This document shows, piece by piece, positions 15,897 through 45,332 of a DNA stretch of 64,000 nucleotides. A program made the translations under genes and the position numbers. Position 1 is the stretch's first letter, and each line of letters starts with the position of its first letter. Where the stretch lies: the NCBI RefSeq assembly GCF_003334815.1, contig NZ_QOWO01000005.1; one strand, given 5' to 3'. This stretch comes from Escherichia coli (GTDB taxonomy: Bacteria > Pseudomonadota > Gammaproteobacteria > Enterobacterales > Enterobacteriaceae). Below the pieces are notes generated by a model, which did no database searches, was not told the DNA's origin, and saw only the letters and a program-made list of their open reading frames with translations.

Positions 15897-16388
15897 TTAA
15901 TCGCGGAAGTTTTTGAACTGGAACGGCTGACCGAGATCGCCACCACGTACCATCGCCATGACAGCCTGCAAATCATCACGAGATTTGCCCGTTACGCGGA
16001 TTTCATCGCCCTGAATTTGCGCCTGCACTTTCAGTTTGCTGTCTTTGATCATCTTGACGATTTTCTTCTGGGTCGCGCTCTCAATGCCCTGTTTCAGTTT
16101 CGCTTCCACAAACCAGGTTTTACCGCTATGAACGATATTCTCCGGTACATCCAGCGAACTGCCTTCAATGCCGCGCTTCAGCAGCTTGGCACGCAGAATA
16201 TCCAGCAACTGATTGACCTGGAAATCGGACTCGCTCAACACTTTGATGGTTTTGCTGGCGTCGTTCAGCTCAAATGAGGCTTCAACGTTACGGAAGTCAA
16301 AACGGGACTCCACTTCGCGGCTCGCGTTATCGACCGCGTTACGTGCTTCCTGAAGATCAACTTCAGAGACAATATCGAAAGATGGCAT
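15897..16388 (-). CDS. yajQ: YajQ nucleotide-binding protein (UPF0234)
   Basis: Track ORF to 16556; trimmed to [22 protein letters not shown] (163 aa). Confidence 0.9.
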
Positions 16389-41886: not shown

Positions 41887-43182
41887 TTAATCGCTGTTTT
41901 TGGCAATTAAACGTTCCGGGATAACAAAACTGAAACGTGTTCCTTTTCCTACTGTACTCTCAATATTCAGGCGACTTTCGTGATGATTCACAGCATGTTT
42001 CACGATCGCTAACCCTAATCCGCTACCGCCGGTTTGCCGGGAACGCGCTTTATCAACGCGATAAAAACGCTCGGTCAGGCGCGGAATATGCTCCGGTGCA
42101 ATGCCCGGTCCGTTATCTTCAACGCTAAATTCGGCACCGTGCGGCACTCGCTGCCAGCGTACGGTGATATGCGTGCCTTCCGGCGTATGATTCACGGCGT
42201 TATAGACCAGGTTCGAAATCGCACTGCGTAGCTGATTTTCGTTGCCAGACACCTTGAGGCCGTTATCTATCTCAAAGGTAAATGTCTGTTTTTTCTGACT
42301 CAGAGTCTGAGCCTCGCGCTCAACAACGCGCAGCATCATCGGCACATCAACCTTTTCATTGAGCAAATGCGTCGGTGCGGCTTCTATTTTCGACAGCGTC
42401 AGCAATTGCTTCACCAGTCCTTCCATCCGCTGGGTCTGCTCGCGCATGGTGTGCAACGCTTTTTCGCGTACCGCGCCTTCCAGCGGCTGCTCATTCATCA
42501 TCTCCAGGTAACCCTGTAACACGGTCAATGGCGTACGTAACTCATGGCTCACGTTGGCAAAAAAGTTACGCCGCGCCCCTTCCAGTTGATGCATTTGCGT
42601 GACATCACGCGCCACCATCAGCAACTGTTTGTGGGTATAAGGCATGACGCGAATTTCCAGATGCCGCCCGGTGTTGAGCACCAGATTGAGCGGGCGAGAA
42701 AAATCACGCGTTTTCAGATATTGCGTAAACTCCGGGTAACGCAGTAGGTTAAGGATGTTCTGCCCGTTATCTTCCGGCCAGCGCAAACCAAGAATTTGTT
42801 GCGCCAGACCGTTACACCAGAAAATACCGCCCTCTTCCGTGGTCAGCACCACCGCGTCGGGCAGCGACTCCGCGCCGCTACGAAAGCGTTTAATCAGATT
42901 GCCCAGTTCACGGCGGCGTTTTTTATTTCGCAGCTGCATCTGGTGTAAGCCGTATAGTAGCGGTTCCCAGCTACCACGCCCCGGTGGCGGGGTCATACTG
43001 CGATCCACCCACAGCCACCATGAAAGGCGCAATAAATTCCAGAAATGCCAGATAAGCAGTCCTGTTACCGATGCCAGCAAAAACCAGGGCAGGTAACCAA
43101 AAAATGCACCCAGGATGAAAGCCGGGAGGCAGCAAAGTAGCAGCTCCAGCACCAGCCTTTTCCACGACAGCCGTTCCAGCAC
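41887..43182 (-). CDS. phoR: PhoR phosphate-regulon sensor histidine kinase
   Basis: 431-aa ORF; H-box [16 protein letters not shown] boxes ([16 protein letters not shown]). Confidence 0.97.
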
Positions 43183-43239: not shown

Positions 43240-43929
43240 TTAAAAGCGGGTTGAAAAACGATATCCTGTACCGCGCACGGTCTGCACCATGCGGTCATGC
43301 CCGCCGGGCTCCAGTGCTTTACGCAGGCGACGAATGTGGACATCGACCGTGCGGTCTTCCACATACACGTTAGTTCCCCAGACGTGGTTTAACAGCTGCT
43401 CGCGGCTGTACACGCGCTCAGGATGCGTCATAAAAAAGTGCAGCAGTTTAAATTCTGTCGGCCCCATCTCCAGCGGCTCTTCGCCCGCCATCACTCGGTG
43501 AGATGTCGGGTCGAGACTTAATCCCTGCATCTCAATCACCTCTTCCACCGCCATTGGCGAAATACGGCGCATTACCGCTTTGATTCGCGCCACCAGCTCC
43601 TTCGGCGAAAACGGCTTGGTGATATAGTCATCCGCGCCGGTTTCAAGGCCGCGCACGCGATCTTCTTCTTCCCCTCTGGCGGTCAACATCACCACTGGAA
43701 TATCCCGGGTCATCGACTCGCGCTTGAGGTGTTTGATGAACTGGATACCGGAGCCGCCAGGTAACATCCAGTCAAGGAGAATTAAATCCGGCCAGGGTTC
43801 ATTCAGTTGATTCACAGCACTGTCATAATCTTCCGCTTCGACCGGCTGAAAGCCATTTTGTTCGAGCACGAAGCAGACCATTTCGCGAATTGGAGCTTCA
43901 TCTTCTACGACCAGAATACGTCTCGCCAT
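43240..43929 (-). CDS. phoB: PhoB phosphate-regulon response regulator
   Basis: 229-aa [21 protein letters not shown]...; receiver domain plus winged-helix OmpR-family output. Confidence 0.97.
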
Positions 43930-43981
43930 GATTTGCCCTGTTGTAATAAATAGGTTGCGATCATTAATGCGACGTCATTAT

Positions 43982-44021
43982 GCGTCAGATTTATGACAGA
44001 TTTATGACAGATTTATGAAAA
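43982..44021 (-). promoter_or_regulatory. Pho-box array upstream of phoB: four 7-bp units on an 11-bp period
   Basis: Minus strand reads CTTTTCATAAAT CTGTCATAAAT CTGTCATAAAT CTGACGC; matches Pho-box consensus CTGTCATA(A/T)A(T/A)CTGTCA(C/T). Confidence 0.85.
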
Positions 44022-44129
44022 GCTCGTCGCACATATCTTCAGGTTATTGATTTCCGTGGCGCAGAAAAAAGCAAATGGCACATCTGTTTGGGTATAATCG
44101 CGCCCATGCTTTTTCGCCAGGGAACCGTT

Positions 44130-45332
44130 ATGCGCATCCTTCACACCTCAGACTGGCATCTCGGCCAGAACTTCTACAGTAAAAGCCGCGAAGCTGAACA
44201 TCAGGCTTTTCTTGACTGGCTGCTGGAGACAGCACAAACCCATCAGGTGGATGCGATTATTGTTGCCGGTGATGTTTTCGATACCGGCTCGCCGCCCAGT
44301 TACGCCCGCACGTTATACAACCGTTTTGTTGTCAATTTACAGCAAACTGGCTGTCATCTGGTGGTACTGGCAGGAAACCATGACTCGGTCGCCACGCTGA
44401 ATGAATCGCGCGATATCATGGCGTTCCTCAATACTACCGTGGTCGCCAGCGCCGGACATGCGCCGCAAATCTTGCCTCGTCGCGACGGGACGCCAGGCGC
44501 AGTGCTGTGCCCCATTCCGTTTTTACGTCCGCGTGACATTATTACCAGCCAGGCGGGGCTTAACGGTATTGAAAAACAGCAGCATTTACTGGCAGCGATT
44601 ACCGATTATTACCAACAACACTATGCCGATGCCTGCAAACTGCGCGGCGATCAGCCTCTGCCCATCATCGCCACGGGACATTTAACGACCGTGGGGGCCA
44701 GTAAAAGTGACGCCGTGCGTGACATTTATATTGGCACGCTGGACGCGTTTCCGGCACAAAACTTTCCACCAGCCGACTACATCGCGCTCGGGCATATTCA
44801 CCGCGCACAGATTATTGGCGGCATGGAACATGTTCGCTATTGCGGCTCCCCCATTCCACTGAGTTTTGATGAATGCGGTAAGAGTAAATATGTCCATCTG
44901 GTGACATTTTCAAACGGCAAATTAGAGAGCGTGGAAAACCTGAACGTACCGGTAACGCAACCCATGGCAGTGCTGAAAGGCGATCTGGCGTCGATTACCG
45001 CACAGCTGGAACAGTGGCGCGATGTATCGCAGGAGCCACCTGTCTGGCTGGATATCGAAATCACTACTGATGAGTATCTGCATGATATTCAGCGCAAAAT
45101 CCAGGCATTAACCGAATCATTGCCTGTCGAAGTATTGCTGGTACGTCGGAGTCGTGAACAGCGCGAGCGTGTGTTAGCCAGCCAACAGCGTGAAACCCTC
45201 AGCGAACTCAGCGTCGAAGAGGTGTTCAATCGCCGTCTGGCACTGGAAGAACTGGATGAATCGCAGCAGCAACGTCTGCAGCATCTTTTCACCACGACGT
45301 TGCATACCCTCGCCGGAGAACACGAAGCATGA
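44130..45332 (+). CDS. sbcD: SbcD (Mre11-type) nuclease subunit of SbcCD
   Basis: Track ORF from 44088; trimmed to [21 protein letters not shown] (400 aa), calcineurin-like phosphoesterase motifs (DWH, GDVFD, GNHD). Confidence 0.95.

Follow-up and report, generated by a model that had tools for sequence, protein, structure and literature searches.

The phoB promoter of Escherichia coli is a textbook activator-dependent promoter and a model for the quantitative study of autoregulation in two-component systems. PhoB~P molecules occupy 11-bp direct repeats in a head-to-tail arrangement (PMC4415409). The Pho box consensus is given as CTGTCAT-A(AT)A(TA)-CTGT(CA)A(CT), and the wild-type phoB box, TTTTCATAAATCTGTCAT, is present in Table 2 of the same publication (PMC3465305). 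The Pho box has to lie at a strictly constrained distance from the core promoter (PMC10294691), and a structural model puts the alpha-CTD just upstream of the PhoB dimer (PMC3348028). Binding to the wild-type phoB site was observed in both ChIP-chip and ChIP-seq experiments, and the level of phoB RNA went down from 32,731 to 34 in a phoB deletion (PMC3465305, PMC10294691).

The phoB promoter combines a high-affinity activation site (about 0.25 uM) with a weak repression site (4-4.9 uM) at the -10; the latter caps the level of PhoB, whose overproduction is costly (PMC6194859). The information content of a PhoB site was shown to predict its affinity, and affinity sets the time of expression onset, not the final level of expression (PMC4447250). 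For example, variants of the phoA promoter with very different affinities had comparable activities at fully induced PhoB (Gao & Stock 2015, PMC4447250).

At pstS and ugpB, tandem Pho boxes make arrays with more than two half-sites at an 11-bp period, and the promoter-proximal box replaces the -35. The pstS promoter has two Pho boxes, that is, four contiguous in-phase half-sites. The ugp promoter is described as having 'multiple PHO boxes' (PMC4415409). In Vibrio cholerae, multiple Pho boxes of the phoBR promoter fine-tune its autoregulation (Diniz et al. 2011, as cited in PMC6194859).

The array described below resembles these systems in part. It shares with pstS and ugpB the period and the replacement of the -35; however, the arrays of pstS and ugpB are fixed, conserved and composed of whole boxes, while here three strong half-sites (one and a half boxes) appear to have come from a recent duplication in one strain. 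Like the V. cholerae promoter, as it is cited by Gao & Stock, it is auto-regulated through several PhoB sites of differing strength, but the V. cholerae promoter belongs to another species and has, according to the same citation, a fixed and different arrangement, not a copy-number variant of one repeat.

The closest described system is the wild-type K-12 phoB promoter (Gao & Stock 2018, PMC6194859; Makino et al. 1986/1988, as cited there), with which our locus has in common the genomic position, the flanks, the CATAAT hexamer, the 10-bp gap, the 29-bp repression site and PhoB itself. The K-12 promoter sequence given by Gao & Stock 2018 has two TCATAAATCTG units (...GAGCTTTTCATAAATCTGTCATAAATCTGACGCATAATGACG..., PMC6194859). 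Our locus, on the other hand, has three such units, the box is CTGTCATAAATCTGTCAT instead of TTTTCATAAATCTGTCAT, and an additional register with a high score is situated 11 bp upstream. The textbook phoB Pho box and the type of mutation are familiar; the three-copy allele is new and previously unrecorded.

The window that we analyzed is a stretch of 64,000 bases of E. coli DNA. It carries phoB on the minus strand (43240-43929), coding for a protein identical to K-12 PhoB (WP_000113933.1), and the divergent neighbor sbcD on the plus strand (44130-45332). The gene phoR (41887-43182, minus strand) is co-transcribed with phoB and so comes under the same altered promoter.

Read in the direction of phoB (minus strand, 44021-43982), the array is TTTTCAT-AAAT-CTGTCAT-AAAT-CTGTCAT-AAAT-CTGACGC, with an exact 11-bp period. 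The preliminary description of this DNA, made from the sequence, had reported four 7-bp units at an exact 11-bp period with the middle two identical, and both the sequence and the coordinates proved to be exact. At 43986-44018, Tandem Repeats Finder detected an 11-bp unit in 3.0 copies (100% matches, score 66). Together with the exact unit positions, this gives three perfect tandem copies of TCATAAATCTG on the minus strand, at 43986-43996, 43997-44007 and 44008-44018, compared to two copies in the wild type. Any of the copies could be the 'extra' one: an 11-bp deletion starting anywhere from 43986 to 44008 produces identity with strain 52F4.

A comparison of 'four versus three' half-sites includes the weak CTGACGC unit. 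Counted canonically, a single Pho box, made of two good half-sites, and a weak half-site next to it are present in the wild type; the window has three good half-sites and the same weak one.

The alignment with K-12 showed a single 11-bp gap and otherwise complete identity across the 200-bp phoB-sbcD spacer, which has 189 bp in K-12; these figures are also the distances between the start codons of the two genes. The K-12 sequence with one unit fewer, which the preliminary description had quoted, was correct by this alignment as well as by the published promoter (PMC6194859). Its estimate of about 11 extra bp confined to the phoB-sbcD spacer also held, the difference being one extra CTGTCATAAAT unit compared with K-12 and all the other complete E. 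coli genomes.

For the copy number census we used complete RefSeq E. coli genomes, in collections without the source genome of the window. A 301-nt spacer query matched 5,425 of the 5,426 genomes. Two copies of TCATAAATCTG were found in 5,422 of the 5,425 genomes, one copy in 3 and three copies in 0, so the alternative raised beforehand, that the four-unit array is the wild-type promoter, did not hold. The matches to the 301-nt query spanned at most 290 bases in every sampled match; none was at 99% identity and the best one was at 96.3% (290/301). For an 86-nt query centered at the array, the best match among the complete E. coli genomes was at 87.2% (75/86), with 0 genomes at 90% or above.

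Two peculiarities were seen among the complete genomes. The one genome of the 5,426 that had no match to the phoB-sbcD spacer did have matches to the flanking 24 kb, and in another genome the phoB-sbcD locus sits on a record typed as a plasmid.

Beyond complete E. coli genomes, we searched for the 25-mer CTGTCATAAATCTGTCATAAATCTG, which exists only if the unit is triplicated. It had no exact match in 100,044 species-representative genomes and none in 241 million metagenome records. The three-unit string was not found in the open-access literature searched, and we found no report there of a mutation in the phoB-sbcD intergenic region.

The closest relative of the window is 52F4, an isolate from a Swiss calf. 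Over the 64,000 bases, the two sequences are set apart by one SNP and by the 11-bp insertion, which is the only indel. The SNP is at position 16116 (plus strand) in yajQ, with G in the window and A in 52F4. The G is the common allele, present in many genomes, and 52F4 is the unusual one; a mutagenised or error-prone genome flagged by a private SNP is ruled out by this observation. In 6.3 kb there are 3 SNPs between the window and K-12; along with the best match to 52F4, this also rules out K-12 or a laboratory construct as the origin of the window. Since one common SNP and the insertion are the only differences from 52F4 over 64 kb, the expansion should be very recent and private. The 11-bp gain thus suggests a slipped-strand expansion, recent and private, within an assembly that is clean elsewhere.

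The one-copy allele, TTTTCATAAATCTGACGC, was found in three complete genomes (NZ_CP104665.1, NZ_CP114227.1 and NZ_OZ039171.1), the carriers being 2021CK-00607 (human urine), N4220121 (wastewater) and 30348_1#89. N4220121 and 2021CK-00607 are identical over 8,086 bp, while 30348_1#89 (NZ_OZ039171.1) has 156 differences from the other two in 8,086 positions (1.9%). Judging by these distances, a unit was lost independently at least twice, and the one-copy alleles sit on two or more backgrounds. The repeat slips in both directions, from two copies to three in the window and from two to one in the three genomes.

These data fit a slipped-strand tandem duplication, the origin proposed in the preliminary description. 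We observed a clean, in-register gain of one unit in a pre-existing perfect repeat of 2 x 11 bp (from 2.0 to 3.0 perfect copies, with clean junctions), no other indel in 64 kb, and the reciprocal loss of one unit in the three genomes, in independent lineages. Changes of exactly one unit, up or down, in a perfect repeat of this kind are characteristic of replication slippage. The lacI (CTGG)3 hotspot, reportedly described by Farabaugh and colleagues in 1978, is said to be the classic case of slipped-strand gain and loss of one unit. As at lacI, a perfect short array shows clean one-unit changes in both directions. At phoB, however, the unit has 11 bp, the ancestor had only two copies, the array is in an operator rather than in coding sequence, and the changes are very rare (3 + 0 in 5,425 genomes).

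An allele with 0 occurrences in the 5,425 genomes, in the 100,044 species representatives, in the metagenome records and in papers would also result if the extra unit came from an error of assembly or consensus calling in a short tandem repeat, or from deliberate editing. We give this explanation little credence. Errors in sequencing are typically indels in homopolymers, not clean in-register duplications of 11 bp. The absence of any other indel in 64 kb with respect to the closest relative argues against an error-prone assembly, and the one-copy alleles, present on two backgrounds, demonstrate natural changes in the number of units of the same repeat.

The wild-type 24-mer TCATAAATCTGTCATAAATCTGAC, which served as a positive control in the wider searches, had matches in 82 species representatives and in 95 metagenome contigs. 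The species belong to Escherichia, Citrobacter, Enterobacter, Klebsiella, Salmonella, Kluyvera and Buttiauxella, and the range extends out to Hafnia and Photorhabdus, where PhoB is 82% identical to that of E. coli. The upstream unit was T-rich (mostly TTTTCAT) and was CTGTCAT in 0 of 177 loci; the downstream GCATAAT was invariant in 177 of 177. The two-copy architecture is among the most conserved non-coding features of the region, and the three-copy state is unrecorded.

The flanks of the 24-mer and of the -10 sequence GCATAAT diverge, but these two elements are kept letter for letter all the way from Escherichia to Hafnia and Photorhabdus, which is unusually strict for an operator. Such conservation fits a promoter in which the activation site, a weak third half-site and the repression site overlap.

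One of the matches came from CACSKA010000001.1, a 799-kb contig titled 'Chryseobacterium sp. 18061'. It has the enterobacterial phoB promoter 24-mer and its PhoB is 95% identical to that of E. coli; the title therefore looks like a mislabel or a contamination. A further upstream half-site in other Enterobacteriaceae was considered as well, and rejected as a natural three-unit array: the GGTCAT or GGTAAT sequence that many species have there begins 9 bp ahead of the next TCAT instead of 11 bp and is out of phase.

Because the two-copy state is exactly conserved across the whole bacterial family, departures from it are probably selected against. A phase-variable (contingency) promoter repeat was rejected, with two copies in 5,422 of the 5,425 genomes and the exact 24-mer in 82 species. 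That the one-copy and three-copy variants are both extremely rare speaks against phase variation at this locus and in favor of purifying selection that keeps two copies.

Since the gain is internal to a perfect repeat, the sequence downstream of it, i.e. the 10-bp gap to the -10, the -10 itself and the repression site, is unchanged. The phoB -10 hexamer CATAAT (43977-43982, minus strand) shares one base with CTGACGC, the layout following the legend of Fig. 4 in Gao & Stock 2018 (PMC6194859). The low-affinity auto-repression site AATGCGACGTCATTATGCGTCAGATTTAT, 29 bp long, overlaps the -10 at 43966-43994 (plus strand, antisense to phoB); it is intact and matches exactly the phoB-rp oligo of PMC6194859. 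The site arrangement behind the coupled positive and negative control known for this promoter is preserved, with the activation box or boxes upstream and the exact published 29-mer at the -10.

Four half-sites are found upstream of the -10, all on the minus strand. TTTTCAT (44015-44021), the upstream half of the wild-type Pho box, is now one helical turn farther from the -10. The consensus half-site CTGTCAT at 44004-44010 has taken its place as the upstream half of the productive box, and the CTGTCAT at 43993-43999 makes the downstream half, at the wild-type distance of 10 bp from the -10. The fourth, CTGACGC (43982-43988), is weak and in phase, and its register, TGTCATAAATCTGACGCA, scores 12.99 bits both before and after the duplication.

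In the window, CTGTCAT-AAAT-CTGTCAT (44010-43993) is a perfect consensus Pho box, with two 7-bp repeats and a 4-bp A/T-rich spacer. The box replaces the -35 and ends 10 bp before the -10, with AAATCTGACG following 43993 and then CATAAT at 43982-43977, as in K-12. The bases equivalent to a -35, ATAAAT, are the same in both alleles. The productive box is TTTTCATAAATCTGTCAT in the wild type and the consensus CTGTCATAAATCTGTCAT in the window, with the old box one helical turn upstream. In terms of predicted PhoB sites, the duplication amounts to a change of the productive upstream half-site from TTTTCAT to CTGTCAT plus the old half-site one helical turn farther upstream.

The sites were scored with a PhoB weight matrix built from 58 ChIP-seq sites, with the phoB promoter site left out (Fitzgerald et al. 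2023, PMC10294691 Table 1). The productive 18-bp register, -80..-63 from the phoB ATG (43992-44009, minus strand), scored 22.89 bits in the window (TGTCATAAATCTGTCATA), 20.93 bits in the wild type (TTTCATAAATCTGTCATA) and -1.08 bits in the one-copy allele. The value of 22.89 bits ranks second to pstS (23.16) among 59 sites, the matrix maximum being 23.37. The distal register, -91..-74 (44003-44020, minus strand), holds the old box TTTCATAAATCTGTCATA in the window and scored 20.93 bits, compared to -1.08 in the wild type and -4.12 in the one-copy allele. The weak register, -69..-52 from the phoB ATG on the minus strand, scored 12.99 bits in the window, 12.99 in the wild type and 11.04 in the one-copy allele. 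Scores of 15 bits or more were rare in the window, at 4 of about 128,000 positions.

The second dimer register that the preliminary description had suggested is therefore present as a predicted strong site by its weight-matrix score. It is the wild-type box moved 11 bp upstream, and its downstream half-site is common to the proximal site. At 21 bp from the -10, the distal register does not have the spacing of an activating box. The duplication had also been seen beforehand as a shift that preserves the phase. The phasing is indeed kept; the main consequence, though, is a consensus box at the productive position with the old box displaced upstream.

With moderate confidence, we interpret the allele as a real, recent and private slipped-strand expansion in a phylogroup-A-like E. 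coli strain, by which the auto-regulated phoBR promoter went from two copies of TCATAAATCTG to three; the promoter is predicted to be still functional, with a higher affinity and an earlier onset. PhoB~P would still activate from the same register, with a somewhat higher affinity, and a third in-phase PhoB protomer might be bound upstream. The auto-induction of phoBR would start at a lower level of PhoB~P, that is, earlier, and the final level of PhoB would still be capped by the intact repression site. The extra unit probably makes the activator site stronger rather than breaking the promoter. What the sequences show is the difference itself, its uniqueness, the signature of its origin and the site scores; the occupancy by PhoB, the direction of the change in expression and any effect on fitness are inferred.

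The productive register gains only 2 bits over 20.9, and with a wild-type site that already has high affinity the effect could be negligible. The expansion could thus be real and yet neutral or almost neutral, a private and short-lived polymorphism that leaves phoBR expression without measurable change, if the wild-type box is near saturating. Such an outcome, which we hold to be rather unlikely, would agree with the saturation of even weak promoters by induced PhoB, as seen for the phoA variants (Gao & Stock 2015), and with an allele known from a single sequence, with no spread. However, affinity shifts the time of onset according to the same work, and the two-copy array in 5,422 of 5,425 E. 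coli genomes and 82 other species suggests that changes in copy number are not neutral in the long term.

The two strong registers (20.93 and 22.89 bits) overlap by one half-site, and a dimer on the distal register would stand 11 bp farther from the -10 than required and could compete with the productive one. Activation would be weakened or mistimed if PhoB~P dimers were drawn to the distal register, or if three protomers or AT-rich DNA disturbed the contacts of sigma-70 region 4 or the alpha-CTD. Both the strict constraint on the spacing between the Pho box and the core promoter (PMC10294691) and the alpha-CTD position modeled just upstream of the dimer (PMC3348028) make such an effect conceivable. 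The DNA immediately upstream of the productive box changes from the GC-rich GTGCGACGAGC to the AT-rich TTTTCATAAAT, with an effect that is unpredictable. On the other hand, of the two registers it is the productive one that is stronger, and RNA polymerase would lend it further stability, and the -35-equivalent ATAAAT is the same in both alleles. Natural Pho promoters such as pstS also work with four contiguous in-phase half-sites. We consider a loss or delay of activation to be distinctly unlikely.

For the one-copy strains, the fall of the productive register from 20.93 to -1.08 bits suggests that auto-induction of phoBR has probably been lost. The repeat could then be viewed as a low-frequency, slippage-driven dial with three states: at one copy the box is lost and there is no auto-induction, two copies are the wild type, and three copies, with a consensus box and one more protomer site, give a hyper-sensitive or faster Pho response. 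The three-copy state would be an adaptive cis-regulatory gain of function selected in a niche with fluctuating phosphate. We regard this extended scenario as unlikely; if it were true, the locus would provide a natural experiment on the trade-off between speed and cost in positive autoregulation.

Under the preferred reading, that of a functional promoter with a stronger activator site, the natural allele alters the activation side only and leaves the -10 and the repression site intact. It would serve as a direct test of the Gao & Stock model, in which the affinity and number of activator sites set the onset of auto-induction without changing the steady-state PhoB level. Together with the one-copy alleles it makes an allelic series of 1, 2 and 3 units. 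The observation is of limited reach: it concerns a single mutation, of a familiar mechanistic type, in a single strain, and equivalent constructs could be made within a day.

On the side of sbcD, the preliminary description had expected a shift of the divergent sbcDC promoter. The spacer is indeed longer by 11 bp, i.e. by one helical turn (200 bp vs 189 bp), but the sbcD angle is weak, because published RNA-seq shows that sbcD is not PhoB-dependent (274 vs 271, PMC10294691). An earlier ChIP-chip study listed a small effect for sbcD (log2 -0.64, PMC3465305). A possible sbcD -10 is TATAAT at 44093-44098, the only good -10-like hexamer before sbcD, and the extra unit is 75 bp upstream of it. No consequence for sbcDC is expected.

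A new promoter created by the duplication was ruled out. The consensus scan of 43850-44250 gave no sigma-70-like consensus promoter on either strand, and on the sbcD strand no usable -10 lies 16-18 bp from the duplicated ATGACA. The only open reading frames touching the region have 22 and 43 amino acids, and neither spans the array. Inside phoB, in antisense orientation, the intragenic PhoB site ATTCACAGCACTGTCATA (43810-43827, plus strand), known from ChIP-seq (Fitzgerald et al. 2023, coordinate 417245), is unchanged and scored 16.58 bits.
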